The notes below the pieces were generated by a model. It did no database searches, was not told the DNA's origin, and worked only from the letters and a program-made list of their open reading frames with translations. From Candidatus Moraniibacteriota bacterium (GTDB taxonomy: Bacteria; Patescibacteriota; Minisyncoccia; Moranbacterales; UBA1568), in assembly GCA_016699385.1 (NCBI GenBank), contig CP064974.1:692654-756653 (forward strand): a stretch of DNA of 64,000 nucleotides, given 5' to 3'. Shown here one piece after another: positions 23,969-55,203 of this stretch. How positions within the stretch are numbered: the stretch's first letter is position 1; each line of letters begins with the position of its first letter. The position numbers were made by a program, and so were the translations under genes.

Positions 23969-24232
23969 AGGCTTGATACAGAAAGAGTAAGATGAAATAA
24001 GAGCGAACTTGCTTAATGTTCAATTGAAAGATTTAACAACATTTTTTCATTACATTCTCGCTTTCACATATCCACAGCGAGCTTGTCTCACACCATAGCC
24101 ACACACTTCAGGGTAGTGCGCATAACAGTGTTTCTCTCTGGATAAATTAAATCTTTAAAGGTTTTTGCATTTGAGTAACGAAAAATAATATTTCGAGCGA
24201 CTTCTGGCGACCCGTTTCCACGCCAACAAGAT

Positions 24233-24436: not shown

Positions 24437-24462
24437 GCCCAGATCTTTGATCGAATCTATTC

Positions 24463-25230: not shown

Positions 25231-25247
25231 GTGTTTCCAAATTTTAG

Positions 25248-25460
25248 CTACTGTCCGATATTTTCGGACACTTCAGAGTAGCCCTCTTTTATAAGTTTTT
25301 TCTTGAGGTCGCTCCAATATTTTCGGGGGCGCGCGGTATCTGTTAAAACCTCGATAACATCAATTATAGAAAACCACCATTCATTTTTATAAAGAATCTT
25401 TCGAACTTCCTTTTTCTGAAATATCACTATCTTGGTACTTGTTTGATTTTGCGTGGTCAT
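25248..25460 (-). CDS. Bro-N / DinD-like N-terminal domain small protein
   Basis: KIVIFQKKEVRKILYKNEWWFSIIDVIEVL fits the Bro-N pattern (F.F..vR....e.wF...Dv...L). It is translationally coupled to the HTH gene by a 4-nt overlap. Confidence 0.35.
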   Translation of the reverse strand: MTTQNQTSTKIVIFQKKEVRKILYKNEWWFSIIDVIEVLTDTARPRKYWSDLKKKLIKEGYSEVSENIGQ

Positions 25461-25462
25461 AA

Positions 25463-25669
25463 TTATTTCAAAAGTTCGTTAATCGGAACACCTAGAGCCT
25501 TGGCCAGATTCGCAATAGTCGAAAGCGTCGGATTTGTCTTCCCATTCTCAATGTTGCTAATAAAAGATTTATCAACAGCGAGTTGTCTGGCAATCTCGGT
25601 CTGAGTAGTATTTTTCCTTGTTCTGATTTCCTTGAGATTTTCTCCAAGCTTTTTCGAGTAGTCTTCCAT
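25463..25669 (-). CDS. XRE-family HTH transcriptional regulator (controller-protein-like)
   Basis: 68 aa containing QTEIARQLAVDKSFISNIENGKTNPTLSTIANLAKALGV, the classic Cro/C1 HTH. Confidence 0.8.
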   Translation of the reverse strand: MEDYSKKLGENLKEIRTRKNTTQTEIARQLAVDKSFISNIENGKTNPTLSTIANLAKALGVPINELLK

Positions 25670-25687
25670 AAAAAGAATATATCACAC

Positions 25688-25709
25688 TTGTTGTATTTTA
25701 CTACAACAA
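25688..25709. promoter_or_regulatory. Inverted repeat TTGTTGTA-N6-TACAACAA upstream of the HTH gene (candidate operator)
   Basis: A perfect 8-bp arm inverted repeat lies 19-40 bp upstream of the HTH start codon. This geometry is typical of C-protein or XRE autoregulatory operators. Confidence 0.35.
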
Positions 25710-26076
25710 TATAACTTTTTGCAAATACAATTTGGGAGCAAGAAAAGGCCGGAAAACGGGCTCACTATTATGCAATAAAGTTCGAGATTCAGAGGTTTTC
25801 AAAAATGCAAAAGTTCTTTCTGGGGACGAAAGAAGAGGTCAGTATCCCAGGTATCGATATTCAAGGGTATGCCAAGTACCTTCTCCGAAGAGGAACAAAC
25901 GAGGAGAAGCGAGAAATACTCGGTTGTTTAAAAAGTCGGATCTATCCCACTCAGAAGAAGATTACTCTAGAAAGGTAACCAAAGATCAAGGCAAGTAAAA
26001 AGCACGGAAATCCCGTGCTTTTTACTTTGTAACCGACCAATATTGCAGGTAAGCATCTCATGCTACCTGCTGACTG

Positions 26077-26163
26077 CGGAGAGGCAGGGATTCGAACCCT
26101 GGAAGGGGTTTCCCCCTTAACACATTAGCAGTGTGCTGCTTTCAGCCGCTCAGCCACCTCTCC
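26077..26163 (-). tRNA. tRNA-Ser (anticodon GCT), type II with long variable arm
   Basis: GGAGAGG acceptor, 3-bp D stem, anticodon stem GCACA/TGTGT with loop CTGCTAA, variable arm GGGGG/CCCCT, T arm CAGGG TTCGAAT CCCTG, discriminator G. Confidence 0.8.
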
Positions 26164-38909: not shown

Positions 38910-40709
38910 TCACTTCCCCTTCCGTCCCGCTTTCACGCGATCGTTCTCCGTGAGAAATTGCTTGCGGAGGCGGACACTTTCGGGAGTGATTTCGAGATAT
39001 TCGTCGCCAGACATCACTTCGAGTCCGCGCTCGATAGAGAGTGTCCATGGTGGCGTGAGCTGTATCGCATCATCAGCGCCAGAAGAACGCATGTTTGTAA
39101 GCTGTTTGCCTTTGGTCGGATTGACACTCATGTCATCCCCCTTCGAGGCATTGCCGATTACCTGTCCTTCATAAACATCCGTTGCGGCGCCAATATAGAG
39201 CACACCACGCTCCTGCAAATTCCAAAGCGAGAAACCGAGCGCCTTTCCTGTCGCCATCGAAATCATCGAACCGACGCTTCGGTGTTCGATATTCCCCACA
39301 TGCGGACGAAACTCCAGAAATCGCGAAGAAAGTATTCCTTCACCCTTTGTATCAACGGTAAATTGCCCGCGATACCCCAAAAGTCCGCGCGTCGGAATCT
39401 CAAAGAGGAGTCGGGAGTCATTTCCCTGCCCTTGCTTCATATCGATCATGATGCCCTTGCGCTTGCCCATCCGCTCGATAACCACACCTGAGTATTCCGT
39501 CGGCACATCCACCGTCACCTCTTCAAACGGCTCGCATTTCTTGCCGTCGATTTCCTTCATAATAACTTTTGGCTGAGACACCTGACATTCATAGCCCTCG
39601 CGACGCATCGTTTCCAAGAGAATCGCGATATGAAGCTCGCCACGCCCAGACACGAGGAAATTCTCGCCCGAATCAAAATCAATCTTGAGCCCCACATTTA
39701 TCTCGAGCTCGCGACGCAAACGCTCGCGAATTTGCTCTCGCGTGACAAACTTCCCCTCCCGTCCAGCAAAGGGCGAATCATTCACGAGGAAATGCAGAGT
39801 AATCGTCGGCTCATCAATCGCAATCGACGGAAGATTTTCCACTTCTTTGGTATGAGCAATCGTATCGCCGATATACACATCCGCAATGCCGGAGATAAGC
39901 GCAATATCACCCGCAGACACTTCCGGCGATTCTTCGCGATTCATACCACGGAAGGTGAAAATTTTGGTAATGCGCCCCGAAGAAACTTCGCCTGTCGGCT
40001 TCTTGGCAAATACGGTGTCACCCACCTTTGCCGAGCCTTCGTAGACACGACAGATAGCGAGTCGCCCGAGGAAATTGTCATAGCCGAGATTGAACGGTTG
40101 AGCGCGAAACGGCGAAGCGGTATCCTGCCCCGCTGCCGGCACTGCTTCGAGAATCGTGTCGAGGAGCGGCGAGAGGTCCGACGACTCATCAGCCATATTC
40201 CGCTTGGCGATTCCCTGCTTGGCAATCGCATACACTGTCTTGAATTCCAACTGCTCATCCGTCGCTCCCAAGTCAAGGAAAAGCTCAAACACCTGGTCGA
40301 GTACCCACTCGACGCGCGCCGCCGGCTTGTCCACCTTATTGATGACGACAATCGGTTTGAGCCCAAGTTCAAGCGACTTCTTGAGCACAAATCGCGTCTG
40401 AGGCATCGGACCCTCCTGCGCATCGACGACGAGAAGCACCGAATCAATCGAGCGAAGCACACGCTCTACTTCACTGCCAAAGTCCGCATGCCCAGGAGTA
40501 TCGACAATATTTACTTTCGTCTCCTTATAAAACAACGCCGCGTTCTTGGAATAAATCGTGATACCACGCTCCTGCTCAAGCGCATTCGAATCCATGCTCG
40601 CCCCCTCCTCAGTCATGCCTGTTTGGCGCATCAAAGCATCGGTCAGGGTTGTCTTCCCGTGATCGACGTGCGCGATAATAGCGATATTTCGGATTTCCAT
40701 AAGCAACAC
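38910..40709 (-). CDS. typA: Translational GTPase TypA/BipA
   Basis: G1-G4 motifs ([19 protein letters not shown]), EF-G-like domains and a C-terminal BipA domain. 599 aa. Confidence 0.9.
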
Positions 40710-41105
40710 TTTAGCGCGAAAGAAGTGAAAACAAAAAAACCAACAAAAAACGGCTCTTGCCGCAGAAGTCTTGACAGACTACCAAAGAAACCCAAATTTG
40801 TCAAAAGTCAGGCACCTTGCCTTTTCGGCAATAAAAAACTCTTGCTCATATCGCTATACACAGAGTATGGGACGAGAGCAAGAGTAAAAATCAGCACTTT
40901 CTATTTCGCCAAGAGGCTACATCCAACCGTGAAGTCGGTGATGAATGCGAGCGAGCATGTCATAGACAATCCATCGCCACTTTCCCCGAGTCCATTGCTG
41001 AACAGATTTCGTATCAAACCACTCATTCGAAAGGAAATCTGTCGCGAAAGCAATTCGCACTCCAAATATTTTCGTGCGATGGAATCCAGTTTGAAAATCG
41101 GTGAT

Positions 41106-41504
41106 TTATGAAGATGCAAGAGCTTGACGTACTCGCTTTACCATATCAGGAAGTGCAATATTCGATTTCACGATATAATCAAGCGCGCCAAGCTCTTTGG
41201 CGTGCGCAATATCTTTTCCCTGACTCAAGTTCGACATCACAATCACACGAATATCTGACAGAGCCGCATCCGCACGAAAGTCAGCAAGCACCTGAAAGCC
41301 GTCCTTGAGTGGGATCATGATATCAAGAAGCACAAGATCCGGCTTCCGTTCATGAGCCTTTCGAATCGCTTCTTCACCATCTCGCGCAAGGTCAACCTCA
41401 AATCCCTCAAGGACTAGCTTTCTCTCGTAAACATCCGAGATGAACTCATCATCTTCGACAATGAGTATATATTTCATAGATTGCTGCACATTCTTATTGT
41501 TCAT
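41106..41504 (-). CDS. Stand-alone response regulator receiver domain (CheY-like)
   Basis: DD acidic pocket, phospho-acceptor D in LVLLDIMIP, conserved T/S and K. No output domain. Confidence 0.85.
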   Translation of the reverse strand: MNNKNVQQSMKYILIVEDDEFISDVYERKLVLEGFEVDLARDGEEAIRKAHERKPDLVLLDIMIPLKDGFQVLADFRADAALSDIRVIVMSNLSQGKDIAHAKELGALDYIVKSNIALPDMVKRVRQALASS

Positions 41505-41522
41505 AGGAAAACTAGCAAAATA

Positions 41523-43217
41523 TTATTTTTTAGCAAGTGGAAGCTCAACAAGAAAAGTTGTTCCTTTTCCCTCTTTACTTTCAAATGAAACGCGACCACC
41601 CATCTCTTCAACAAAATTCTTTACTACAGCAAGTCCCAATCCTGATCCTTCGGTCTTCCAACGAAGCGCATTCGAGGCTCGGAAGAATTTCCCAAATATT
41701 TTCTCGCGCTCTGATTTCGGAATGCCGATACCCGTATCGGAAACCGAGAAGACAATCTTGTCTTCTGTAGTTGTATCCAGATGAATCGTAACTGTTGATC
41801 CCGAAGGGCTGTATTTCACGGCATTATGGATGAGATTTTCACACACTTCATGAAGACGCCGTGGGAACGACAGCACTTTCCAACTATTCGATTTTTTCGA
41901 TGGAGCAAAGTCGATATGCACGCCGGATTTCTCAGCGAGCGATTGCAATTCCCCAAGAACCGTCGATATTGTCTCGACAACACCAACCGCTTCGGATGAT
42001 TCAGGATCCTGCCCCGCATCAAGCAGTGCAACATTCAAAAGATCATTGATAAGTCCGATCATACGAAGCGTATTCGCGTGTATCTTTTTCACAGTTTCCG
42101 TGGCTTCCGGAGAAATCTCTCCAACATCACCACCAAGCAGCATCTCCATATTCCATCGCATTCCCGAAAGCGGTGTCCGAAGCTGATGCGCTGCAACAGA
42201 GAGGAAGCGGTCTTTGGCGTTATCCATCGCGCGTTCTTCCGTCATATCCTTGAAAACAATCATGCATCCAAGCAACCGATTGTCGTCGGAGTGAATCGGA
42301 TTGATAGAGTACGAAATTGGCAATGTCTCCAAACCCTTACGAACCAACAAACCGCGAGTGTCCTCCAGAGAAGACTTCTTCGTAATTATCTGCTCGAGAA
42401 AATCTATCGGGACATTCGGACGTTTCTCAGTTGCAAGCGAAAAGAAATCCTGACATCGGTTCCCCAATACAGACTGAGATTTGACATCATACTCCGGAAT
42501 ACCGAGAATACTCCCCGCCGCCTCATTGAGAAAGAGGATATTCCCACCAAGATCAACAGCTATAACGCCATCACCAATAGATTGCAAGAAGCGAAGAACC
42601 GAATCACGCTCTTCTTTCTCTCGACCAAGTGATTCATTCGCAACTTTCAAATCCTCCGATTGAGCCACCAGTTGCTTTTCATACTGACGCCGTTTGGTAA
42701 TATCTCGTTCAACACCAACAAAGAAACGAACGTCTCCTTGTTCATCGAGAAGTGGAGAAACGCCGATTTCTGCTATGTACTGCTCGCCTGACTTCCGCCT
42801 ATTCGTCACCTCACCCGAAAATCGTTTTTTCTGTTCCTTGATAGTCTTCCAAAAATTCTTGTAGAAATCAATTCCCATTTGACCTCCCCACAACGCCGGA
42901 GTTTTCCCGAGTATTTCATCAATCGAGAAGCCCGTAATATGTTCGACTGCTGGGTTGGCATAAAGTACAGTACCATCCGGATCAGTGATGACCATATGGT
43001 CAAAACTCCCTTCCGCCGCCATACGGAATTTCTTCAATTCATCAGCCTGATCTCGAAGCTGACCCTCAAGAATACGTGCATCATCAAGTACGTTGAGTAT
43101 CGCTTTCTCCGTATCCTCGAGCTGATGAACTTTCTTCTCAAGATCACGCACATACTCTGCCGAAACAGGCGTGCTTTCCAAATCCAATACCCCTTGTGAT
43201 TTCGTAGCGTGTGGCAT
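41523..43217 (-). CDS. Cytoplasmic PAS-domain sensor histidine kinase
   Basis: Two or three PAS-like segments, HisKA H-box (LSVAAHQLRTPLSGM) and HATPase_c N, G1 and G2 boxes (NLIHNAVKYS, DTGIGI, GSGLGLA). No TM helix. Confidence 0.85.
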   Translation of the reverse strand: MPHATKSQGVLDLESTPVSAEYVRDLEKKVHQLEDTEKAILNVLDDARILEGQLRDQADELKKFRMAAEGSFDHMVITDPDGTVLYANPAVEHITGFSIDEILGKTPALWGGQMGIDFYKNFWKTIKEQKKRFSGEVTNRRKSGEQYIAEIGVSPLLDEQGDVRFFVGVERDITKRRQYEKQLVAQSEDLKVANESLGREKEERDSVLRFLQSIGDGVIAVDLGGNILFLNEAAGSILGIPEYDVKSQSVLGNRCQDFFSLATEKRPNVPIDFLEQIITKKSSLEDTRGLLVRKGLETLPISYSINPIHSDDNRLLGCMIVFKDMTEERAMDNAKDRFLSVAAHQLRTPLSGMRWNMEMLLGGDVGEISPEATETVKKIHANTLRMIGLINDLLNVALLDAGQDPESSEAVGVVETISTVLGELQSLAEKSGVHIDFAPSKKSNSWKVLSFPRRLHEVCENLIHNAVKYSPSGSTVTIHLDTTTEDKIVFSVSDTGIGIPKSEREKIFGKFFRASNALRWKTEGSGLGLAVVKNFVEEMGGRVSFESKEGKGTTFLVELPLAKK

Positions 43218-43231
43218 AGAAAAAATTTCGA

Positions 43232-44782
43232 TCAGTTATGTTTCTTGTCGATGAGTTTTCGACACTCGCCTATTTCCTTCTTGAGTTCGATCATGCGAAG
43301 CTCTCGACTCACCATGATAGCATTCAAACGCTCGGTCTCTTTTCGCTTCTGCACCTCTGCCTCCTCTAGCTCTTTCCGTTCAGTTATATCGACCGCCGTA
43401 TGGAGAAATCCCAAGAAGACACCGGATGAATTCGAAAATGGAACGCTATTGTCGAGCATCCATCGATACTGATTCTTCGCCAGCGAAACACGATATTCCA
43501 TCCGAAGAGGCTTCCGATTCTCAAATGCAGAGACGCACTGCGCGCGATATCCAGGCTCGTCATCAGGATGAATACTCTTCTGCCACACCTCCGTGAAATG
43601 TTCTTTCGAAGTCTCTCCGATGAGCAACAAGGTTTGTTTGTTTACATAGAGACACTTCCGTTCCCTATCAATCATCCAGAGAAACGCCGGCATGGTATCC
43701 GCAATCGTTTGAAACCGACGCTCAGCGAGATCACCTCGCTCACGCACCTGCAAGAGCGATCGAAGCATCGCATTAATCTCTTCGGCGAGTTTTGCAATCT
43801 CATCGCTCCCAGAGAATTCTATACCCGATTTCGACACTCCTCTCTCTCTTGCATGAGCGAGCGAGCGGCTCAGATAGTTCACACGAGAAAGTACTGCCCA
43901 ATGAAGTAAGAAAAAAATAAGTAATGTTGAGACCAAGAAAAAGCCAATCAAAGAAAGTACGACAATTATCTTTGATACACCAAATGCTGTGGGTATCGCC
44001 CGTTCAATCTTATAAAACAGCAGCGGACTCCCAAATACATCCGCAACGAATCCGTAGCCAGAAATAGTTGCCTCTCCAACAAAAGTCTTAGGTTTATTGG
44101 AAGATGTGAGTTGACCCGCAATATTCGCAAAATCCGATGGAAAACTCTTTGATCCATACAACTCGAATGAAACAGGGTATCCGAGAAAATTGGATATTCC
44201 ATAGCGATATGAGTCATCAATCATCTTCACAAACGCCAATGTCCCGCGAGATGGTCCCTCTCCATGCGACGTCATAATCGGTCGCGTCGCGATAAATGCA
44301 AGTCCTGATGAAAGTTGAATAATCCCCGAATGCACCTCTGTATTGGAATCAAATGTCGAAAGGAGAGAACCCGGTTTAAGTTGATCTTCAACATCATCAG
44401 GAACGGGAATCTGTTCCCGAGTCTTCATGTCCACTCCCTGTCGCGCAAGCACCGTCCCGTCCCGCTTGGCGATAACGATGAAGTTCACACCAAGAACATC
44501 AAGGGAGTCCGTTGGAAGATTCGACTTGACAAACTCTTCCGTTGGCGCACCTGCAAACGAATACATATCATCCCATTGCGACCAATCAAGAAGCTGATGA
44601 TCCAGAGTCCGCATATCTCTCGCAATCACCCGACCCGTCCACTCAACATTCTCTTGAACAGCATGCTGTTCATTCTCAACAAGTCGCCCCAAGAAGAAAA
44701 TGCCAAGCCACGCATAGAGAGCAATCAAGACACCTTCCAATGCATATGCCACAATGAAAAATATTTTCTTTTGCAGAGTCAT
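43232..44782 (-). CDS. Membrane-anchored sensor protein with a periplasmic domain and a C-terminal PAS domain (no kinase domain)
   Basis: N-terminal TM, extracytoplasmic domain of about 250 aa, second TM, then a PAS domain (FQTIADTMPAFLWMIDRERKCLYVN...RMEYRVSLAKNQYRWM) and a coiled coil. Confidence 0.5.
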   Translation of the reverse strand: MTLQKKIFFIVAYALEGVLIALYAWLGIFFLGRLVENEQHAVQENVEWTGRVIARDMRTLDHQLLDWSQWDDMYSFAGAPTEEFVKSNLPTDSLDVLGVNFIVIAKRDGTVLARQGVDMKTREQIPVPDDVEDQLKPGSLLSTFDSNTEVHSGIIQLSSGLAFIATRPIMTSHGEGPSRGTLAFVKMIDDSYRYGISNFLGYPVSFELYGSKSFPSDFANIAGQLTSSNKPKTFVGEATISGYGFVADVFGSPLLFYKIERAIPTAFGVSKIIVVLSLIGFFLVSTLLIFFLLHWAVLSRVNYLSRSLAHARERGVSKSGIEFSGSDEIAKLAEEINAMLRSLLQVRERGDLAERRFQTIADTMPAFLWMIDRERKCLYVNKQTLLLIGETSKEHFTEVWQKSIHPDDEPGYRAQCVSAFENRKPLRMEYRVSLAKNQYRWMLDNSVPFSNSSGVFLGFLHTAVDITERKELEEAEVQKRKETERLNAIMVSRELRMIELKKEIGECRKLIDKKHN

Positions 44783-44839
44783 AAAAAATTGCTTCGTTTT
44801 ATTTTCTTGAGGAAAAAGGTTCGAAAAAACACCGGGCGC

Positions 44840-47092
44840 CTACTCATATCGAAGGGCATTTAGCGCAGATATTTTCGTCGCGCGTCGCGCCGGATAGAGC
44901 CCAGTCAACACGCCGACAGCGAGAGAAAATATGAGAATGGTAACTACGAAAAGATTTGGTATATATGCCACATCAAGAACACCGAGATTTTTATCACGGA
45001 AAAATGCCACAGTAGAAATAAGCACGCCAATCGATTTGCCAGCAAGAAATCCCAAGAAAAGGCCGAGGACACCGCCAAAAAACGACATCACCATAGACTC
45101 AGTGAGAAAAAGCTCCTGCACCTCGAACGCCTTCATGCCCATTGCTTTCATGAGTCCGACTTCGCGTGTTCGTTCAAGAAGTGAAACGGTCAACGTATTG
45201 AACATACCGAGCGCTGCAACACCAAGCGCTGCCATACCAAGAAGCGCAAGCACAATACGAGCTGTTCCAAAGAAGTTATTGATCTGCTCCACCGTATCCG
45301 CAACAGATGTCGTCACATATCCCGTACCTTCGACTTGTCGACGAACATTTGCGAGCGATTCTTGAGTGGCAACCGTCAGTTTCACTTGGGAATAGTTGGT
45401 CACACCAAGTGTCCGCACATCAATGAAAGGAATATAGAATACGGGAGTCTTGTCATCAGGGATAACGCCGATAATCGAATATTCCGACTCGACGGATTCA
45501 ATCTTTTGCGCCTTACCACCAAACAATGCTCCGGTAATAACAAAAGACACATTGAACTTTTTGCCAACTGCTTCTGATTCAGAAAGTGAAAGTACCTGAA
45601 GCATCGCGCGATTCACAACCGCCTCACGTTTTGCCGCCTCTCCAAGCGTCGCTTGCTCAACCGTTTTGTCTCCCTTTGACGTATCGCCAAGATCAATTTC
45701 CACCCACTCACCATCGGATGCAGATACCTTGATATTGTTCACCGTCGACGATGAATCGGTCGCGGAATCAGTTGTACTAGCAGAGGCTTCTGTTGTTGCA
45801 GCAGTCTCTGTAGACGCTGTCGCCTCGGTACTTTCACCAAGCACAAGACCCGAGTCATCAAGCGATGTTTCATGAGCCTTGTCTATCGGAGTAACAACAA
45901 TATCCTCATCCACAAGAGCAAAGTATCCCTGTTCAACCAGAACCAATCCATCAGCGCCTTTCATCGAGGTGAAGCCCCCGGCACATTCATCCGAAGAATC
46001 GCACTGGGAAGATTTCTCCCACAAAGAAGTTTCGATTGAAATCCATTTCCCCAAGGTCTCTCCATGGGAATCTTGATATGCTTCCCCTGAATGAGAAACC
46101 GTGCTCCCATACGGCTTCCCTGCAACGATATCACCATCAATAGGGATACGAGAAAGTCGACTATATCCGAGAAGTCGCGATTTCGGATCAGGAGATTCTC
46201 GCAGTCGAACCCACACTATCGAAGGTGTTTGCACCGAAGCCGGCTCGAGGATATCGCCGAAACCTTCGGGAGACAGAGGAGCCGAATCGGACACGCCAGC
46301 AACCGTTTCCGTCGTTGGAAGGCTCGCTGAGAGATCATTACTCTCAAATATCGTGCCAGACGATGGTTGGATTGCCGATTGGCGAAGATAATCCGACGTC
46401 ACCGCATAGACAGCCATATCCGACACCGATCCCTGATAATTCACTTTGCCGACCACTGCAACAAGCGGTGCAACCGATTCGACATTTGGAATCTCCCGCA
46501 TGTTCGCAAGTGTTTCATCGTTTATCTTCACCTTACCGCCTGCCTGAGGAGACACATCCATTTGTCGCATCTCTTCGAGTCTCGCCACTTGGGAGATTAC
46601 CAGCCGCTGGACACCATACCCAAGCGAGACAAGAAATACAATCGAGGCAATACCGAGTGCCATACCTCCGATAGTAATTGCTGTTCGAGTCTTCTTCACC
46701 TTCATATTGCGAACAGCAATACCAATAAGACTGATACGATCGATAGACTGTCGTCGTTCGATACGAAAAAGTTTCTCAATTTTGCTATAGAGTGCCGCAA
46801 ACATTTCTTCACTCGAACGCGGAGACGGACGACGAATAATCTTGAGCACTCGACCATACGCCGAAAACACCCCACGCGCAACAATGTAAAACAAGAGAAG
46901 TACCACAAAGAGAACCAATCGAAGAAATGTGCTCTTAAAAAACTCAGGAATCCCCACTATCCATCGCCACAGCCGCACAAAAAACGCGACGTGTTGAAGA
47001 GGAGCAGAGACTTCAAGAATCGCCACACCATGTGCGGCAGCATCTTGAACATCTTTGATCGGTTTTTTCTTTCCAAAGAAAGGGAAATGCAT
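44840..47092 (-). CDS. MacB-like ABC transporter permease (FtsX family) with a large extracytoplasmic domain
   Basis: N-terminal TM, an extracellular domain of about 500 aa, and a C-terminal FtsX three-TM bundle (...VLGLFLGFLAGKSIG...LYPARRATKISALNALRYE). Confidence 0.65.
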   Translation of the reverse strand: MHFPFFGKKKPIKDVQDAAAHGVAILEVSAPLQHVAFFVRLWRWIVGIPEFFKSTFLRLVLFVVLLLFYIVARGVFSAYGRVLKIIRRPSPRSSEEMFAALYSKIEKLFRIERRQSIDRISLIGIAVRNMKVKKTRTAITIGGMALGIASIVFLVSLGYGVQRLVISQVARLEEMRQMDVSPQAGGKVKINDETLANMREIPNVESVAPLVAVVGKVNYQGSVSDMAVYAVTSDYLRQSAIQPSSGTIFESNDLSASLPTTETVAGVSDSAPLSPEGFGDILEPASVQTPSIVWVRLRESPDPKSRLLGYSRLSRIPIDGDIVAGKPYGSTVSHSGEAYQDSHGETLGKWISIETSLWEKSSQCDSSDECAGGFTSMKGADGLVLVEQGYFALVDEDIVVTPIDKAHETSLDDSGLVLGESTEATASTETAATTEASASTTDSATDSSSTVNNIKVSASDGEWVEIDLGDTSKGDKTVEQATLGEAAKREAVVNRAMLQVLSLSESEAVGKKFNVSFVITGALFGGKAQKIESVESEYSIIGVIPDDKTPVFYIPFIDVRTLGVTNYSQVKLTVATQESLANVRRQVEGTGYVTTSVADTVEQINNFFGTARIVLALLGMAALGVAALGMFNTLTVSLLERTREVGLMKAMGMKAFEVQELFLTESMVMSFFGGVLGLFLGFLAGKSIGVLISTVAFFRDKNLGVLDVAYIPNLFVVTILIFSLAVGVLTGLYPARRATKISALNALRYE

Positions 47093-47113
47093 AGAAAGGC
47101 TCCTTGAGAAAAT

Positions 47114-48025
47114 TTATGTCGCAGGCTGGGAAGCTTGTTTTCCGCCACTCGACCCTCCATACGAAAACACGATTGGTTCAGCATTTGGATCTTCTTCGAT
47201 ACCCGCACCCTGCTGAATACTCACACCTCGTTTATACTTCAACTCTTTTTCCAAATTCGCTTTTTCTTCGCCTCGATAAATTCCGAGGAGATGACCGTCT
47301 CGCATAGAGAGTGCCGTCTTTGCATACGCGAGATACTCGAGGTCATGCGTCACCATGATGAGCGTCTTTCCATTTTCATTCAGAGACCGGAGAAGTTTCA
47401 ACAACATTTCACCGGCATCGTAGTCGAGATTTCCCGTCGGTTCATCCGCAATAATCACTTCCGGATCGGTAATAAGTGCCCGCGCCACAGCGATGCGCTG
47501 TTGCTGTCCACTCGAGAGATCCATCGGGTGATATTCCGCCCAATCAATAAGCTCTACCGAGCGAAGCGCTTCTCTCGCCCGTTCAAATGCCGCCAGCCGA
47601 TCCCATCCAAGCAAGAACAAGGGAAACGCGATATTTTCCAAAACGCTCAAAGATTTCACCCAATTCGACTGCTGATACACCATGCCAATGTGTTTTTTGC
47701 GAAACTCCGATCGGACATCCTCTTCTATTCCCGGACCATACAAATTCTTTCCGAGAAATGTCATATCCCCTTTCGACGGTCCCTCAAGTCCAAGAATAAT
47801 ATGAAGAAGCGTCGACTTTCCGCATCCGGAAGGACCAAACACGATTAAGAAATCCGATCGTTCCACAGTGAAACTGATGCCCTTCAAAACGTCAATGACC
47901 TGCGCCCCAACATGGAAGGATTTATACACATCCGTCACCGTAATGACCGATTCCCCTGCTTGAGGAACCGATTCATACCCTCCGGAAAAAGGCTGTTGCG
48001 AAAGAGGAGTAATGACTTCTGACAT
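47114..48025 (-). CDS. ABC transporter ATP-binding protein (MacB/LolD-like)
   Basis: Walker A GPSGCGKST, Q-loop, ABC signature LSSGQQQRIAVARAL, Walker B IIADEPT, H-loop. It has a C-terminal extension of about 70 aa. Confidence 0.9.
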   Translation of the reverse strand: MSEVITPLSQQPFSGGYESVPQAGESVITVTDVYKSFHVGAQVIDVLKGISFTVERSDFLIVFGPSGCGKSTLLHIILGLEGPSKGDMTFLGKNLYGPGIEEDVRSEFRKKHIGMVYQQSNWVKSLSVLENIAFPLFLLGWDRLAAFERAREALRSVELIDWAEYHPMDLSSGQQQRIAVARALITDPEVIIADEPTGNLDYDAGEMLLKLLRSLNENGKTLIMVTHDLEYLAYAKTALSMRDGHLLGIYRGEEKANLEKELKYKRGVSIQQGAGIEEDPNAEPIVFSYGGSSGGKQASQPAT

Positions 48026-48033
48026 AACAAAGT

Positions 48034-51000
48034 TTACTGACCAAAAATAGACTTCAGACTCGAGAATACGATATCGAGCGCATTCTGAGTTGCCTTCGGC
48101 GCAATGGAAACAATATCGATTGATTCCCCGATATTCCCCGCTTTGTCTTTTGAAAGAACACGCAAGTGATACACTTTCGACGGCGTCAGTTTCGAAATAA
48201 CCACCGTATGATTCGACACCAATGAAGCATCCTCCTGTGTCTTCTGCGGATAGACTGACCCCGTGCCTTCGCCATACTCAACCTGCGCTGTTGCCGATTC
48301 ATCTGTTGTCCATGTGACAACAAGTTGTGCTTCCGGTTCGCCCTGACTTCCATCGGCCGACTTCACGATAAGTCCCTCGACATTCGCATCAATAATTTGC
48401 GGGGCACGCGTATCCGTTGCCGTCGTAAATTGCAGAGCAGTGGATTTTGCCTCATTCCCAAAATTATCCCGACCTTTCACGATGAGCGAATACGGTGTCT
48501 GTGGCAAAAGATCTCGAAGCAATATCCGGTGTTCCCCGGTCACCATCTTTGCATCAACCTCATCCTTCGCATCACCATCGCGTCCTTCAGGAGAGTATGT
48601 GACAATAGAAGATGTTTCGGTATTTGTTTTCCACGAAATAAGCAGTACTGTTTGCGCCGTTCCTTTCACCTGTTGAATACGCACCTCTTCAATCTTCGGT
48701 CGTGGCAATGTTTCAAAAGAAAGTGTACTCCCTTCGTATTCTTCTTCCTCACTATCAACCGTATTTATCTTGTAGTAATATTTCGTCCCATCAAGGAGAT
48801 CTTCAAGACTCGTCGTGTATGTTGTTTCAGAGGTTGATGTAGCCACTTCTTTCACGAGACCGAAGGCTTCTGTTAGCCCGTAGTATATTTTCACTTTGCT
48901 TGCCCCCTTTGCTGTAAATTCCAAGATAGCACTCGTGAGTCCCGCGCTTTTCAAATTTGGATCAACCACCGTCGGAGCGGGATCTGTTTTGAACGACTTT
49001 TCTCCCGAGAGCCCCGTGTTGCCATCTTCATCTGTCCAACGCGCACGATAGTGATATGTCGTCCCCGGAGAGAGATTCGAGAGCTTAATCTCATGATCCG
49101 TCACCTGCTCGGAGTTGCTCGGCTCTTCGGAGTAGTATGACCCGGATCCTTTTCCATACTGCACTTTACTATCTGATGTCCGATCGGTAGACCAGCCAAT
49201 CGTCGCACTCTTTGTCGTAATAAGTGAAACTAATGGACCAGATGCGAGTCCAGCTGCTTCGGTATATTTTCCCGTTGGATATGCCGAGACAATTTCACTA
49301 AAGGCTCCGCAATTGTTAACACTATCACAAGCACGAATCTTGTAGTAATGAACCACCTGCGTCAATCCCGTATCCACAAAGGCGATACCACTCGTCGAAG
49401 CAACCTTTGTATATGTCCCGCCTTCACTCAGCGAGTGATATATCTGATAGGAATCGACACCAGAGCCAATATCTGATGGAGCTTCCCATGAAACGGCAAG
49501 CTTCCATGACTCGGTATTCTTCACCGATACGTCAGCAATATCCATACTCAGAGGAATCCCTGGCGCACTTGTATTGGCAACAAACTCAGCCGTTTCATAG
49601 GCGCCATAGTTGATAACCCCTCCCAAATCCTCCGGGTTCTTGGCAACCACATAGAAGGTATTCGTTCCCTTCTGCGTCGCAAACGAAGATGCTGCTACCG
49701 ACTCCACACCAGGAAGCGTAAATGAACAAGTATCTTCCGATGGCACTGCATTCACGGTATAGCAATACGTCAGGTCACTAGCGTCTCCCGAAAAACTAAA
49801 CGGCGGATCCCAAATGAAAGCAAAAGAGTTCGCAGTGTTTGTAGCCGGTATTGCCTGAACATTCTGCGGCGCCGTCGGTCCCGATCCAGCATAGTAGAAC
49901 GACGTGCGAACATTTCCCGAGCTCACATTGCCCGCGACATCGATAGTACGCAAATAGAAGAAATTCTCCCCGGTTTGATAGGCAGCACCAGTGATATCCA
50001 CCTGAAGAGCCGTCGTCGTTGTTGACCACCCATCACTTGCGACGACGGCAGCGATCTGATATTGATATCCAGCAATCATAGAATTTGTTGCTGGGTTGCC
50101 ATTTCCATCTGTTCCAGCACTCCAGAGGAATGAGAAATCAGCATCGGGAGAATAGACCGCCGGCGCCGCTGTCACACCAAGGGGATTCGTTGGAGCAGTC
50201 GAGTCAAGCCAATACGAAAATGCTACCGGAAACACTACACTCGTATTCTGTGCGATATCTTTCGCTTTCACGATAAGATAGTATTTCTGTCCACTCACCA
50301 GTGCATTCCCATCTGTATCGACGGTTGCCACGTAGCTATTCCCCACCTGGAAATGCCCCTGTGTCGTCGGCTCGGCACTTGCCGAAGTACCAAAGTACAC
50401 AAAGTATCCTGACACACCCGATCCGCCCGTATCTGTCGCCGGAGACCATTCAAAATAAGGCGCCGTATAAGAATACCAGGTACCCGTTGTAAGATCTGTC
50501 GAGCCACCATCTGAGTCCTTCGCACTCAGGGTCGGCGTTCCTCCCCACGCCGGCGCCACAATATCCGCTGTAGCCGTCAAGTCAACGGAATTGAGCTGAA
50601 CCAGTTCATTTCCATCTCCAAGAAATATTGCCTGCCACAAAAGTCCGCCAGATCCCGCGGGAAATGTCGAGATATTCGTCGATATCGTTGAGGCATCATT
50701 CGACTGTGCATATCCAGATGATGTCGCCCATGCGGAACCATTCCAATACTGCCACGTTGACCCACCATTATCCGAGAGGCGATAGGTAAGAGTGCCGGGC
50801 GACTCCTCGTCCGTGACAAATGCATCCCATTTCTTCACTCCAGAAGTATGCACTGCAGAAGCAAGTGTCACCGTTTCATATCCACTCGAGTAAGGGGTTG
50901 ACTGAAAAGATGTGCGTGCAACAGAGCTAATGCGGAGCTCATCAAGAGAACCCTGAAAGAACCCTTCTGGTTTCCCGTACTCGCGACCAGCATAGGTTGT

Positions 51001-54000
51001 CCCAATCAAGATATCACTCGATGAATCTGAAATGGACATCGAGATAGATCGCGAATTATTCAGTGTCCCATCGACATACAAACTCATGGTCGAACCATTA
51101 TAAGTCGCTGCAACATGATGCCAATTGGTATCGAAAGAGCTTGTCGCCGACTGGAGAAACGCATTGTTTCCAAATGACCACACCGCCGCATCAGCATTGG
51201 CTGTATTTCCAGTTCCAGCATAAAACTTTCCCTTGTAAGCACTAAATGCTCCCACCTCTTCAATCGTTGATCCCCAACTTCCATTCACATTATCACCGCC
51301 GACCTGCGACCACGACGACCCGACATACCGCCACACCTCTCCATCTCCGGCAGTTGTCCCCAATCCCGCATAGAGTGCTCCATTATATACCGCGAGTGTC
51401 CGGACCCGTTCATACGTCCCACTCGACCAACTCCCGCCGACATCATCTCCGCCAATTTGTATCCAGGACGAACCATCATATTTCCACACCTCCGCATCAT
51501 CAGTCGATGTTCCGAGTCCTACATAGAGAAACCCCGCATAGACAATCAGACTATCCACTTGCTCATAGGTACTGTTTGCCCAGCTCGAATTTACACCATC
51601 TCCGCCAACACGACTCCATACTGGAGTACCTTCGCAATTCGTGCACTCCCAAACTTCAGCATCACCAGCGCTCGACCCGAGACCCGCATAAATTTTCCCC
51701 GCATGCACACCAAGTGCTGTCACGCGCTCAAAGTTCGTCGTCCAGCCGGAGTTGAGACTGTCACCACCGACCTTGGTCCATGTCGAACCATCCCATCGCC
51801 ACACTTCAGCATCATTGGCGCTATTTCCAAGTCCAGCATAAAGAAATCCGCCATATGAAGCGAGTGAGTTTACCTCCTCAAAATTTGTCGTCCAGCCGGA
51901 ATTGAGACTATCGCCACCAATCTGTTCCCACGTTGATCCATCCCAATGCCACACTTCAGCATCATTAGCACTTGATCCTAAGCCGACATAAAGCTCACCC
52001 TCGTGTCCAATAAGACTCGTCACAGTTTCATAGGTATTCGCATCCCAGCTCCCATTCACACCCTGACCGCCAACAAGTGTCCAGGTTGTTCCATCAAACT
52101 GCCACACCATGGCATTACCAATAGTGGCAACTCCCGTCCCGGCATAGAGATAATCGCCTGTCACATTCAAAACTTCAACGCTTCGAAGGCCACGAAATCC
52201 CCAGCTAAAATTTACATAATCACCACCGATAAGTGTCCACGAAGAACCATTCCATGACCATTCTTGCGCTGAAACAGTGCTACTTGAAGTGCTAATACCC
52301 GCATAGAGTGTTGAACCGTCCACTGCGAGCGTACTCACAATAGTATGTGTATTTGTAAAGCTCCCATTCACTCCGTCACCACCGATTTTGGTCCATGTCG
52401 AACCATTAAAACTCCACACCTCATTATCACCAGCAGTCGATCCAAGACCAGCATACAATGTCGTTCCATCGTTCACGAGAGAATACACCATTTCATAGCT
52501 TGAGCTATCCCAACTCGAATTCACGGTATCGCCACCTATTTTGCTCCATGTCGAGCCATTCCATTTCCACACTTCGGCATCACCCGCCGTGAGGCCGAGA
52601 CCCACATAGAGATTCCCGCCAAAATACGTCATCGAATAAACATATTCGTAGGTTGCATCCCAACTCGAATTGAGGCCATCTCCACCGATTTTTGTCCACG
52701 ATGAACCACTCCATTTCCACACCTCTGAGTCACCCGCCGTCAAACCGAGACCGGCATACACATTCGTGCCGTCATTTGTCAAACTATAAACACCTTCATA
52801 ATTCGTCGTCCAGCCGGAATTGAGACTATCGCCACCAATCTTGGTCCATGTCGAGCCATCCCATCTCCATACTTCGGCATCATTGGCGCTATTTCCTAGA
52901 CCCGCATAGAGATACCCTCCGACAAATGTCAGCGAATTCACCGCTTCAAAGGTGTTTATTTGCCAACTCGAATTCAACGCATCGCCACCTATTTTGCTCC
53001 ATGTCGAGCCATCCCATTTCCATACTTCGGCATCACCCGCCGTCAGACCAAGACCCACATAGAGATTTGTTCCGTCATTCGCCATGACATACACTGCTTC
53101 AAAAGTGTTAATCGCCCAACAGTTATTCAATCCATCTCCGCCAATCTGCGTCCATCTCGTCCCATCCCACTTCCACACTTCCGCATCACCTGTCCCATTT
53201 CCAGTACCGACGTACAAATTCCCACCAAGAACATTTGACGATTCTATTGTTGGATTCCCATTCAAATCCCAACTTCCATTAATGTCGTTCCCCGCCTGCT
53301 GTGTCCATCCGGACGCCGAGGCATTTGCCAATTCATAGGTAAGCTTTCCTGTTTCATTATCAAAGTAGAGCTGATAATCCCCCTTATCGACAATTCCCTG
53401 TCGTTGAGGGTGGCTCCCCACCGAGAAAGCCGACGAAAACTTCGTCCATGCCTCAATCGTATTTGCCTGCGACAAAGAATTTGCAGCCGAATCCGGAGCT
53501 GATGCAAACGCCGTCGTCCCATTGAATGAAAGTGCATTATTGAGGTTGCCTGAAGCAAAGCTTCCTCCCGACACAGTTGCGTTGTTTGCATTCGCCGAGC
53601 TATCAGTGGCAGTTGTCCCGTTTGACTCGTCGAAGTGATAGAGTGCGACAGTGTCACTGTCACTTGTATAATTCTTGACCGAGAGATGCGACTCCGTATT
53701 CGCACCATCAACCGTCACGCCACTTGAAGCAACATAGTCTCCCGACGTCGCAAAATCCCATGTTTCGGTAATCTCCCCATCAGCAAAAATATTGTGGATA
53801 CGTCCAGAGAAAAATAAAAAAGCGCCCGCTACTACAGAGGCAGACAGAACAGAAAAAACAACATACCGTGGCTTCAAACTCCACAGCAGCCGAATACTCC
53901 AAGCAACCAATCGCCCCAAGGAAACTCCCCAGAACAAAAGTCGCGAATAAAACGTTTTGTATTTTTGCATATACCAGACCACGAGAATATCCCGCAGTTG

Positions 54001-54021
54001 GAAAGACATCTCATTTCTCAA
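48034..54021 (-). CDS. Giant (1995 aa) membrane-anchored surface protein: LamG-like domains, about 17 tandem Kelch-like beta-propeller repeats, multiple FN3/Ig-like C-terminal domains
   Basis: N-terminal TM. LamG motifs (ALYHFDE...TIEAW and WHHVAATYNGSTMSLYVDG). A 48-aa repeat LY.GLG...GDAEVW.WDGS.W..IGGD..NS.W. FN3-like segments in the C-terminal 700 aa. Confidence 0.7.
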   Translation of the reverse strand: MRNEMSFQLRDILVVWYMQKYKTFYSRLLFWGVSLGRLVAWSIRLLWSLKPRYVVFSVLSASVVAGAFLFFSGRIHNIFADGEITETWDFATSGDYVASSGVTVDGANTESHLSVKNYTSDSDTVALYHFDESNGTTATDSSANANNATVSGGSFASGNLNNALSFNGTTAFASAPDSAANSLSQANTIEAWTKFSSAFSVGSHPQRQGIVDKGDYQLYFDNETGKLTYELANASASGWTQQAGNDINGSWDLNGNPTIESSNVLGGNLYVGTGNGTGDAEVWKWDGTRWTQIGGDGLNNCWAINTFEAVYVMANDGTNLYVGLGLTAGDAEVWKWDGSTWSKIGGDALNSSWQINTFEAVNSLTFVGGYLYAGLGNSANDAEVWRWDGSTWTKIGGDSLNSGWTTNYEGVYSLTNDGTNVYAGLGLTAGDSEVWKWSGSSWTKIGGDGLNSSWDATYEYVYSMTYFGGNLYVGLGLTAGDAEVWKWNGSTWSKIGGDTVNSSWDSSSYEMVYSLVNDGTTLYAGLGSTAGDNEVWSFNGSTWTKIGGDGVNGSFTNTHTIVSTLAVDGSTLYAGISTSSSTVSAQEWSWNGSSWTLIGGDYVNFSWGFRGLRSVEVLNVTGDYLYAGTGVATIGNAMVWQFDGTTWTLVGGQGVNGSWDANTYETVTSLIGHEGELYVGLGSSANDAEVWHWDGSTWEQIGGDSLNSGWTTNFEEVNSLASYGGFLYAGLGNSANDAEVWRWDGSTWTKVGGDSLNSGWTTNFERVTALGVHAGKIYAGLGSSAGDAEVWECTNCEGTPVWSRVGGDGVNSSWANSTYEQVDSLIVYAGFLYVGLGTSTDDAEVWKYDGSSWIQIGGDDVGGSWSSGTYERVRTLAVYNGALYAGLGTTAGDGEVWRYVGSSWSQVGGDNVNGSWGSTIEEVGAFSAYKGKFYAGTGNTANADAAVWSFGNNAFLQSATSSFDTNWHHVAATYNGSTMSLYVDGTLNNSRSISMSISDSSSDILIGTTYAGREYGKPEGFFQGSLDELRISSVARTSFQSTPYSSGYETVTLASAVHTSGVKKWDAFVTDEESPGTLTYRLSDNGGSTWQYWNGSAWATSSGYAQSNDASTISTNISTFPAGSGGLLWQAIFLGDGNELVQLNSVDLTATADIVAPAWGGTPTLSAKDSDGGSTDLTTGTWYSYTAPYFEWSPATDTGGSGVSGYFVYFGTSASAEPTTQGHFQVGNSYVATVDTDGNALVSGQKYYLIVKAKDIAQNTSVVFPVAFSYWLDSTAPTNPLGVTAAPAVYSPDADFSFLWSAGTDGNGNPATNSMIAGYQYQIAAVVASDGWSTTTTALQVDITGAAYQTGENFFYLRTIDVAGNVSSGNVRTSFYYAGSGPTAPQNVQAIPATNTANSFAFIWDPPFSFSGDASDLTYCYTVNAVPSEDTCSFTLPGVESVAASSFATQKGTNTFYVVAKNPEDLGGVINYGAYETAEFVANTSAPGIPLSMDIADVSVKNTESWKLAVSWEAPSDIGSGVDSYQIYHSLSEGGTYTKVASTSGIAFVDTGLTQVVHYYKIRACDSVNNCGAFSEIVSAYPTGKYTEAAGLASGPLVSLITTKSATIGWSTDRTSDSKVQYGKGSGSYYSEEPSNSEQVTDHEIKLSNLSPGTTYHYRARWTDEDGNTGLSGEKSFKTDPAPTVVDPNLKSAGLTSAILEFTAKGASKVKIYYGLTEAFGLVKEVATSTSETTYTTSLEDLLDGTKYYYKINTVDSEEEEYEGSTLSFETLPRPKIEEVRIQQVKGTAQTVLLISWKTNTETSSIVTYSPEGRDGDAKDEVDAKMVTGEHRILLRDLLPQTPYSLIVKGRDNFGNEAKSTALQFTTATDTRAPQIIDANVEGLIVKSADGSQGEPEAQLVVTWTTDESATAQVEYGEGTGSVYPQKTQEDASLVSNHTVVISKLTPSKVYHLRVLSKDKAGNIGESIDIVSIAPKATQNALDIVFSSLKSIFGQ
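50760..53210 (-). repeat. Tandem coding repeats (about 144-bp units, about 17 copies) encoding Kelch-like blades
   Basis: Periodic nucleotide and amino-acid repetition (GGDSLNSGWTTNFE.V.SL...G.LYAGLGSSANDAEVW.WDGSTW). It produces many spurious repeat-derived ORFs in other frames. Confidence 0.6.
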
Positions 54022-54164
54022 ATTTTACAACAAAATACAAAAAACTCCTAGCACGAGAAAACAAACGAAAACCTCTCTATTCCAAAAAGTTTCTCTGCAA
54101 ATATTCTCAACTTGCCCGAATGGCTATTCATGCTAGAGTAAACATAAGGGAGAGCCTCAAAATT

Positions 54165-54782: not shown

Positions 54783-55183
54783 GGGGTTGTCTAGATTCGA
54801 CAGGATGCACTTTGAAAATACGCAAGCCGATTATGAAGGTGATATCGCAAATCTCTCCTTCACGATGACATCTGCAAACTTCATCACAAAGGCAAAGCAA
54901 GCCTTCGCGCAAGCGTTCCAGCCTGCTTTCGCTTCCGCTCTCGCCTAACTTCGTTCGGTGAGTGCCATCGGACTCCCGACTCCCGATAGGGAATGTTCCG
55001 GTGTTATATTTTCGGGAAAACCCGATACTCTCGCCTCATGGAGTATCGATCGTTTCTGCACATGAGACACGTCGACCCGTTTTCGCACGCTTTTACGGTC
55101 CGACGCATATGAAGCGCGCTATGCTTGTAGACTATTTTTAAACCTCATCACTGGACATGGGTGCAATTCCCATCAACTCCACC
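54783..55183 (+). ncRNA. ssrA: tmRNA (ssrA), standard one-piece form
   Basis: 5' GGGGTTGTCTAGATTCGACAGGA. tRNA-like 3' end GGAC ATGGG TGCAATT CCCAT CAACTCC ACC with a G3:U70 pair. Internal tag reading frame ending ...AFQPAFASALA-TAA. Confidence 0.8.
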
Positions 55184-55203
55184 TATTTTTTTACACAAAA
55201 AGA

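Follow-up and report, generated by a model that had tools for sequence, protein, structure and literature searches.

A giant surface protein, a MacB-fold ABC transporter and a split sensor relay in a composite locus of Patescibacteria

ATP-binding cassette (ABC) transporters of the MacB-fold superfamily turn cytoplasmic ATP hydrolysis into movement of an extracytoplasmic domain rather than into passage of a substrate through the membrane, and we know of no transmembrane substrate channel in permeases of this kind. MacB, LolCDE, YtrEF and HrtBA have a separate LolD/FtsE/MacB-like ATPase and a permease with MacB_PCD, a C-terminal FtsX domain and a large extracytoplasmic domain between transmembrane segments TM1 and TM2. 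FtsEX is a pair of the same superfamily dedicated to one extracytoplasmic partner (PcsB, EnvC, CwlO or RipC), which its ATP-driven movement controls and does not transport. In BceAB-BceRS, an FtsX-superfamily ABC transporter has genes for a histidine kinase and a response regulator as neighbours. Chemotaxis systems use a kinase-less HAMP membrane sensor (the methyl-accepting chemotaxis protein, MCP), a soluble kinase (CheA) and a single-domain receiver (CheY) that acts on a molecular machine by protein contact, and receiver-only regulators work by binding proteins. In the LapA system (LapBCE, LapD, LapG), an adjacent ABC system and an inside-out signalling device govern the display of a very large repeat-rich surface protein. 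Here we analyzed a locus that resembles each of these systems in part, at positions 41106-54021 of a 64,000-nucleotide (nt) stretch of contig CP064974.1 from a Candidatus Moraniibacteriota bacterium; this whole stretch is referred to below as the window. Bacteria of the candidate phyla radiation (CPR, Patescibacteria) account for a large part of bacterial diversity and live in attachment to other cells, and to our knowledge the means by which they recognize and hold their hosts are still mostly obscure beyond type IV pili. The interval is filled exactly by six minus-strand open reading frames (ORFs), separated in gene order by gaps of 8, 21, 57, 14 and 18 nt:

48034-54021, minus strand, giant envelope protein of 1995 amino acids (ORF read from a TTG at 54021, with the ATG at 53970 as a possible true start)
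47114-48025, minus strand, ABC ATPase of 303 amino acids (ORF; Pfam ABC_tran)
44840-47092, minus strand, MacB-fold permease of 750 amino acids (ORF; Pfam MacB_PCD and FtsX)
43232-44782, minus strand, CHASE4 membrane sensor of 516 amino acids (ORF; Pfam CHASE4, HAMP (weak) and PAS)
41523-43217, minus strand, histidine kinase of 564 amino acids (ORF; Pfam PAS twice, HisKA and HATPase_c)
41106-41504, minus strand, receiver (REC) of 132 amino acids (ORF; Pfam Response_reg only)

The initial annotation of this DNA had treated these genes as one module. They do form a co-directional unit that recurs in relatives; however, the unit is composite, with a core of giant gene and ABC genes that is conserved across the phylum and two-component genes that are facultative, found beside this core at 19 of 79 genome loci and in varied orders. 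Domain calls made earlier for the MacB-like ABC genes, the LamG and FN3 domains, the PAS sensor, the PAS kinase and the CheY-like regulator agree with Pfam and NCBIfam.

The permease is a member of the MacB-fold (type VII) superfamily with additions, and on this sequence and fold evidence agree. It matches Pfam MacB_PCD (3.1e-17) and FtsX (1e-15), and its ATPase is of the LolD/FtsE/MacB type with Walker A, Q-loop, LSSGQ signature, Walker B with the catalytic Glu and H-loop all intact; the best NCBIfam matches of the ATPase are LolD (4e-57), FtsE (4e-53) and MacB (2e-47), each under its equivalog cut-off. Hydropathy gives five hydrophobic helices in the permease, and the topology of an AlphaFold2 (AF2) model (pLDDT 74.9) agrees: an extra N-terminal helix TM0 (residues 48-80), TM1, an extracytoplasmic domain of ~430 residues (~170-596) and TM2-4, which form the FtsX domain. 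Foldseek matched the permease to MacB, LolE/LolC, Spr0694/5 and YtrF (E = 1e-14 to 1e-18) as well as to HrtB, YbbP, BceB and FtsX, and the closest sequence in the PDB is that of Bacillus subtilis YtrF, over the transmembrane part only. Unlike MacB, LolCDE, YtrEF and HrtBA, the permease has TM0 and an extracytoplasmic domain of about twice the usual size, which contains an inserted beta-rich subdomain (residues ~281-402) and a disordered Ser/Thr-rich loop (residues 405-476). The inserted subdomain bears two cysteines, Cys364 and Cys370, that are conserved in the alignment, and TM0 residues F62, L65 and Y69 are invariant among 57 homologues. The permease falls outside FtsEX proper, as NCBIfam FtsX models score it at 25-30 bits against cut-offs of 225-255. 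The gene content around the transporter is also distinct. Unlike MacB and LolCDE systems, the locus has no membrane-fusion protein, outer-membrane channel or LolA-type acceptor, and the constant partner is instead a 2,000-residue LamG/propeller/FN3 protein. Type I secretion is likewise a poor match, there being no HlyD/TolC-like gene in the cluster, a permease of the MacB/FtsX type and an N-terminal hydrophobic segment in the giant protein; in contrast to the LapA system, we found no type I ABC_membrane exporter, membrane-fusion or outer-membrane protein, cyclic di-GMP component or protease.

The association between the giant gene and the ABC genes was examined with a permease scan that took one genome per species, found at least 555 relatives and yielded 79 loci (denoted here by L and a number). 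In tblastn searches with the window proteins, giant, ATPase and permease occurred together, the first two on the upstream side of the permease, at 57 of the 58 genome loci having at least 5 kb of upstream flank. Under strict contiguity (same strand, gaps of 0-600 nt) 43 loci qualified, and 4 others failed only through an overlap of 22-39 nt between aligned ends. Conservation of the pump genes elsewhere without the giant, which the initial annotation had named as a refutation, is the opposite of what was observed, since the pump almost never occurs without the giant. Near-full-length homologues of the permease, at 41-56% identity, number in the hundreds, and those with names are from Moraniibacteriota or Patescibacteria; the locus titles include Moran-, Collier-, Shapiro-, Nomura-, Woese-, Davies-, Beckwith-, Roizman- and Pacebacteria, Microgenomates, WWE3, WS6 and Saccharibacteria. 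The giant belongs to a family of more than 500. The 120 homologues listed are 1839-2083 residues long (nearly all 1910-2083), are 50-91% identical to the query, mostly align over at least 96% of it, and carry no annotation beyond hypothetical, LamG or FN3 protein; giant orthologues at the loci are 40-65% identical across 900-2,090 residues. The giant plus its ABC pair is thus a phylum-wide conserved unit, and of the whole interpretation developed below it is this coupling, together with the composite architecture, in which our confidence is much higher than in the overall functional reading.

Some irregular loci were observed in the same survey. The sole partner-less locus (L069, JACKGU010000001.1, Nomurabacteria) is on another contig of the genome that has L024; it bears an additional permease paralogue, and neither a giant nor an ATPase gene lies within 10 kb. 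The giant gene of L057 (L057:2598-8806) is broken into ORFs of 782 and 1339 amino acids that overlap, and the ATPase of L003 (L003:6850-7410) was called at 186 amino acids against 300 in the near-identical L004; these anomalies are frameshifts, assembly errors or pseudogenes. Many metagenome-assembled genomes that bear the trio of giant, ATPase and permease have the titles "Bdellovibrionales", "Gammaproteobacteria" or "Pseudomonadales" (L009, L011, L015-L018, L026-L028, L037, L044 and others), and one giant homologue is labelled Thiothrix sp.; such titles are probably those of mislabelled bins. At L037 (12134-14884), L073, L074 and L080 the permease gene is followed by a conserved run encoding a ~110-residue protein with hydrophobic segments, a ~430-residue protein and two more small proteins. 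The ~110-residue protein may be VirB2/TrbC pilin-like, and a type IV secretion-like character of this run is a guess.

Within the window, Pfam identifies Laminin_G_3, fn3 and Pur_ac_phosph_N domains in the giant protein, and its parts are arranged from the N-terminus as follows:

53803-53868, minus strand, N-terminal hydrophobic segment, residues 52-73 (Kyte-Doolittle scan), the sole hydrophobic segment of the protein
53293-53736, minus strand, N-terminal beta-sandwich, residues ~96-243 (13 strands in the AF2 model)
51151-53250, minus strand, 14 repeats of ~50 residues, residues ~258-957 (repeat listing and AF2)
50908-51231, minus strand, Laminin_G_3 (concanavalin-like) domain, residues 931-1038 (Pfam 4.8e-14; 8.2e-17 on the slice)
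48142-50574, minus strand, FN3/Ig-like array, residues ~1150-1960 (Pfam fn3, Pur_ac_phosph_N, PhoD_N and Ig_Rha78A_N)
48037-48114, minus strand, conserved C-terminal tail ITPKA(T/S)xNALxLVxxxLxxxFG (homologue tails)

The hydrophobic segment has the appearance of a Sec-type signal anchor or uncleaved signal peptide. Because a Sec-type segment is present, and because MacB-fold permeases lack a substrate channel, it is unlikely that the giant is cargo transported by the ABC pair, as had been suggested at first. By sequence motif the beta-sandwich may be LamG/ConA-like, and when this slice was scanned alone it gave no Pfam match. An AF2 model covering residues 75-1060 (pLDDT 89.5, pTM 0.88) arranges the 14 repeats as 14 four-stranded blades in two 7-bladed beta-propellers, and its best Foldseek matches are the double 7-bladed propellers of Elp2, GH74 xyloglucanases, PorZ and Aip1. 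The Kelch label that these repeats had been given was not borne out, as no Kelch family of Pfam matched the repeat region at E <= 1 and a weak match to the Rax2 beta-propeller was obtained instead (1.7e-7); the model suggests a double 7-bladed propeller of generic type. The C-terminal tail is a candidate docking element. No enzyme was found in the giant by Pfam on slices, a phmmer search of the C-terminal half against the PDB returned nothing, and a full-length profile against the PDB gave FN3/Ig and LamG-type matches only. The idea of a hidden enzyme was rejected on these searches.

The N-terminal part of the giant is not the same in all orthologues. A class of short giants (~1,550-1,630 residues) aligns only with query residues ~1050-1994, that is, the last ~950, and the giant of L058 has a third type of head, DUF2341; the FN3 stalk and tail are the only part common to all orthologues. 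In a census of neighbour families, a reverse transcriptase (RT) gene was located just upstream of a short-class giant gene in 10 loci (L023, L024, L025, L035, L036, L047, L052, L073, L074 and L080), and bAvd adjoins the RT in 5 of them. A template repeat of ~116 nt has a copy within the giant gene in all 4 loci tested (L023, L024, L047 and L080); in L023, where the whole region spans L023:2173-5656, the template is situated between avd and the RT gene. Mismatches between template and copy fall on template adenines in 16 of 16 cases in L023, 14 of 15 in L024 and 13 of 18 in L080, and translation of the variable repeat gives the canonical RGG(S/N)W...GFRC end of an FGE-sulfatase/C-type-lectin domain (Pfam scan of L023). 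In these orthologues, diversity-generating retroelements (DGRs) target the head of the ABC-partnered giant, which makes them genuine DGR targets like the diversified surface receptors of CPR bacteria. The window copy is without a DGR: no RT or Avd gene flanks it, its neighbours being smpB and the ABC ATPase gene, and the window was not scanned for repeats. Taken together, the giant would consist of an exchangeable, ligand-binding head and a constant, ABC-associated stalk and tail. The retroelement-hypermutated lectin heads therefore favour the view that the giant is a receptor or adhesin whose ligand-binding head is borne on a conserved stalk coupled to the ABC pair, and among the roles first proposed for the giant that of a regulated adhesin or receptor fits best.

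The remaining three genes encode a sensor relay in which the sensor input and the kinase, usually on one polypeptide, are on two. The membrane sensor consists of a transmembrane segment, an extracellular CHASE4 domain (residues 53-206), a second transmembrane segment, a weak HAMP, a PAS domain (residues 355-475) and a coiled-coil tail, ERLNAIMVSRELRMIELKKEI; hydropathy places the two transmembrane segments on either side of CHASE4, and Pfam finds no output domain. The tail is strikingly conserved among relatives. The kinase is soluble, with no transmembrane segment by hydropathy, and has an N-terminal helical segment, two PAS domains, HisKA and HATPase_c. Its H-box, AAHQLRTPLSGMRW, and its N, G1, F and G2 boxes (residues 344-530) are canonical two-component motifs, as are D18/D19, D61, S91 and K113 of the receiver. 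The unusual H-box form HQLRTPLxxx(R/K)W is common to the window kinase, the kinases of L044, L062, L065 and L057, and P0013, a fused relative of 858 amino acids with the order CHASE4-PAS-PAS-kinase. The receiver, for which gene callers on the matching contig favour a start giving 123 rather than 132 amino acids, has Response_reg as its only Pfam domain and thus no DNA-binding domain, as had been noted earlier. The split of the sensor, also noted then, is genuine. Sensor and kinase occupy two ORFs that differ in frame and are separated by 14 nt; the identical 516-residue sensor is present on two independent assemblies, therefore its stop codon is real; and the output-less CHASE4-HAMP-PAS form of ~515 residues is kept in relatives from 97% to 29% identity (at least 17 protein clusters). 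A frameshift or assembly error was ruled out by the two assemblies and by the conservation of form and tail down to 29% identity. As judged from sequence, the split relay is a conserved unit, in which the sensor tail and the N-terminal helix of the kinase may form the signalling contact.

The same order of sensor, soluble PAS kinase and receiver-only protein is kept in a clade only ~30% identical to that of the window (L008, L093, L094 and L131), and L092 keeps sensor and kinase, its contig stopping within the kinase gene. These belong to a set of 13 loci, 11 of them metagenomic (L007, L008, L092-L095, L102, L107, L119, L128, L131, L136 and L148), in which a membrane-anchored LytR_C protein of ~190 residues, not the ABC permease, is encoded directly upstream of the CHASE4 gene (for example L007:9394-9951 and L008:644-1252); kinase and receiver genes accompany the sensor there wherever the flank is long enough. 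A role as co-sensor or as an alternative partner in the envelope is possible for this LytR_C protein.

Comparison of gene neighbourhoods showed all six genes in the same order in relatives with CHASE4 proteins 82%, 66% and 47% identical to that of the window. The flanking genes differ on both sides, and recurrence amid changed flanks indicates more than chance. Across the wider set, in which the trio is kept phylum-wide, two-component genes or related sensors accompany it in seven arrangements:

Arrangement A, window clade: trio, then split CHASE4 sensor, kinase and receiver
Arrangement B, L013-L018, L020 and L085: trio, then CBS protein and CHASE4-PAS protein, no kinase
Arrangement C, L039: fused CHASE4-HAMP-kinase and receiver, divergent from the giant gene
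Arrangement D, L044, L046, L062 and L065: fused CHASE4-PAS-kinase and one or two receivers, between giant and ATPase
Arrangement E, L057: PAS-PAS-kinase and two receivers upstream, one receiver downstream
Arrangement F, L058: two receivers downstream
Arrangement G, L035: GAF-kinase and receiver downstream

The sensor is of the CHASE4 type in four of the seven, and the regulators that adjoin the trio are all receiver-only proteins of 119-150 residues. In a rough neighbour-joining tree of the permease, A and B are sisters and C, D, E, F and G are placed elsewhere, giving at least five lineages. The sensor family is the commonest neighbour family (15 loci). When ~1.4 Mb of loci was searched with home-made receiver and kinase hidden Markov models, and proximity was judged by contiguity with the module, all kinase and receiver matches but one were contiguous with the trio. 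The case for a functional link between relay and trio is good, but not conclusive. In arrangement B, that of the sister Moranbacteria clade (L014:12077-13961), the permease gene is followed by genes for a CBS-pair protein and a 472-residue CHASE4-PAS protein, with no kinase or receiver nearby. The PAS of the latter matches the first PAS of the window kinase (~55% identity) and not that of the window sensor, which suggests that an ancestral fused kinase was broken at another point.

We propose that the locus encodes an ABC-actuated giant receptor or adhesin together with a relay whose phosphorylated receiver modulates the motor post-translationally or, alternatively, a relay that reports the state of the machine. 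To this reading as a whole we would give an even chance. The giant would be extracellular, held by its one N-terminal hydrophobic segment, and would present a ligand-binding head on the FN3 stalk and tail. Since MacB-fold transporters turn ATP hydrolysis into movement of an outer domain, the ABC pair may act on the giant mechanically, changing its conformation, its anchoring or its grip on a ligand, much as FtsEX acts on PcsB or EnvC. The CHASE4 sensor would pass an external signal, or the state of the envelope machine, through its coiled-coil tail to the soluble kinase, which would phosphorylate the receiver-only regulator. Because the receiver is unable to bind DNA, its output would be by protein-protein contact, and the repeated placement of sensors, kinases and receivers beside the trio in varied orders suggests that the phospho-receiver tunes the ABC motor, so that the relay would gate an ATP-driven adhesion or recognition device. 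Another possible sense of the relay is that it reports the state of the adhesion device. That the receiver docks directly on the ABC proteins is conceivable, although we regard it as doubtful.

By analogy, then, the locus may work most like FtsEX with its partner, combined with the sensor, soluble kinase and CheY logic of chemotaxis. FtsEX would be the closest functional analogue of the giant-ABC module, though the partner here is about five times larger and carries no hydrolase or activator domain, the permease has MacB_PCD and not FtsX_ECD, and a phosphorelay is attached. The resemblance to chemotaxis lies in a kinase-less HAMP membrane sensor, a soluble kinase and a single-domain receiver, which by analogy may likewise act on a machine by protein contact. 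It does not extend to the components themselves: unlike in chemotaxis, the kinase is an ordinary HisKA/HATPase_c protein and the link from sensor to kinase is presumably a coiled coil, and Pfam and NCBIfam found no MCP signalling domain, CheW, or CheA Hpt, P2 or P5 domain in the six proteins.

Several observations weigh against the proposed reading. At about 60 of the 79 genome loci the trio is without a two-component gene beside it, and the relay is therefore dispensable for the machine. Arrangements A and B count as one event because their clades are sisters. The split relay is also found away from ABC genes, next to the LytR_C protein, and so may sense something unrelated to the giant. A single transcription unit of six genes is plausible, on the basis of the short gaps and of simple pattern scans. 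The module is apparently absent from the cultured saccharibacterium Southlakia epibionticum and is therefore widespread, not universal.

Two of these observations lend weight to the strongest rival, that the relay is adjacent to the trio but separate from it in function, controlling some other target (type IV pili, cell-wall enzymes or metabolism) and merely co-transcribed with the trio or inherited beside it. We consider this unlikely. The 13 LytR_C loci and the many trios that lack two-component genes are consistent with it, as is the habit of small CPR genomes of packing unrelated genes tightly; what it leaves unexplained is that seven gene orders in several lineages put relay genes beside the trio or within it, between giant and ATPase, and that a single kinase or receiver match lay away from the trio in all the sequence searched.

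The evidence on the giant and its permease also bears on a quite unlikely alternative, an extraction or release machine in which the ABC pair, like LolCDE or HrtBA, pulls the hydrophobic segment or the tail of the giant from the membrane, the giant being a substrate. LolE/LolC and HrtB are among the closest Foldseek folds, the giant does have a single N-terminal hydrophobic segment and a conserved tail, and the extra conserved TM0 could bind a partner helix. However, there is no lipobox and no acceptor such as LolA, and one permanent partner at 50-60% identity over 2,000 residues resembles a stable complex, with which release is still compatible. Very unlikely, in our view, is control of the cell wall in the manner of FtsEX, with the ABC pair activating a peptidoglycan hydrolase or a division or elongation factor and the giant as that factor or its scaffold. 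The giant has no hydrolase, LytM, CHAP or coiled-coil activator domain by Pfam and PDB profile searches, the permease has 750 residues and MacB_PCD against ~300 residues and an FtsX extracellular domain, and the hypermutated lectin heads of orthologues point to recognition of variable ligands, which together outweigh the good score of the ATPase against FtsE, the conservation of the trio in the way of housekeeping gene sets, and the fact that among solved sequences the permease is closest to B. subtilis YtrF, which belongs to an operon with an effect on wall thickness. Finally, a Bce-like module, suggested by the initial annotation, in which the transporter would clear or sense an antimicrobial peptide and, by way of a kinase, bring about its own induction, is highly improbable: MacB/FtsX-superfamily permeases do pair with two-component systems in Firmicutes and BceB is a distant Foldseek match, but the locus departs from all three defining features tested, having a permease of 4+1 transmembrane helices with one FtsX domain where BceB has 10 with two, a soluble PAS kinase with a separate CHASE4 sensor where BceRS has an intramembrane-sensing kinase with two transmembrane helices and neither PAS nor extracellular input, and a receiver-only regulator, incapable of direct transcriptional induction, where BceRS has one of the OmpR type that binds DNA, and its obligate partner is a 2,000-residue protein.

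If the reading of an ABC-actuated receptor with an attached relay is extended to the whole phylum, the result would be an ATP-powered surface device of Patescibacteria in which exchangeable heads (propeller/LamG, DUF2341 or DGR lectin) sit on an FN3 stalk worked by a MacB-fold motor, switched in several lineages by a CHASE4 relay through CheY-like docking, that is, chemotaxis-style control of host attachment or recognition. We offer this extension tentatively and think it rather improbable. The giant is in any case a testable candidate for host recognition, as a protein of ~2,000 residues that is 50-60% identical across several lineages, has an ABC motor beside it and has a hypermutated head in some. 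Should the coupling prove true, the idea of an ABC transporter as mechanical actuator, developed for FtsEX, would extend to a new class of partner. The split CHASE4 sensor, kinase and receiver are a compact example of two-component output that is non-transcriptional, and their recurrent adjacency to the trio points to a first candidate target. In line with the earlier remark that this combination is not a described system, we found no published description of the trio or of its two-component link in the CPR, DGR and YtrEF literature, our coverage of which was incomplete, such that an earlier description is possible; the literature on large CPR surface proteins offers generic remarks that FN3 or ConA domains occur.

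The boundaries of the gene cluster were also considered. Seven consecutive minus-strand genes with short gaps had been counted at this place; the genes are indeed co-directional with gaps of 8-57 nt, but their number is six, as the next co-directional gene, typA/bipA (38910-40709), begins 396 nt past the receiver gene and outside the interval. A terminator between the giant and the ABC genes, which would have divided the unit, was looked for together with the other internal gaps: a pattern scan found no terminator-like site in any of the five, a result of little weight because the counts of such sites overall do not exceed those in shuffled sequence. Two features were identified at the edges:

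40832-40885, minus strand, probable terminator hairpin with U-run (-28.2 kcal/mol, z = -3.8)
54022-54164, no strand assigned, AT-rich intergenic region separating the divergent giant and smpB genes, a putative promoter from sequence only

The hairpin is ~220 nt beyond the stop codon of the receiver gene, and none of 200 shuffled sequences folded as well. It was overlooked by the pattern scan because of its long loop, and it likely terminates the six-gene unit. Two further features of the 396-nt spacer between the receiver gene and typA (40710-41105) are a TTGACA box that resembles a promoter element and, close to typA on its near side, another hairpin (40750-40763), which is weak. At the other end, the intergenic region probably holds a promoter. 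On the upstream side of the giant gene, and divergent from it, are smpB (plus strand, probable start at 54165) and, directly after it, the tmRNA gene (54783-55184, 93.8 bits in Rfam), which is also divergent. Rfam found no riboswitch or other non-coding RNA inside the cluster, the tmRNA being the sole RNA nearby. Farther away, the G+C content is 0.37 at positions 24001-26000 against 0.44-0.53 over the rest of the window, with a tRNA gene just past this stretch (26077-26163); the low-G+C stretch could be an island or a foreign segment.

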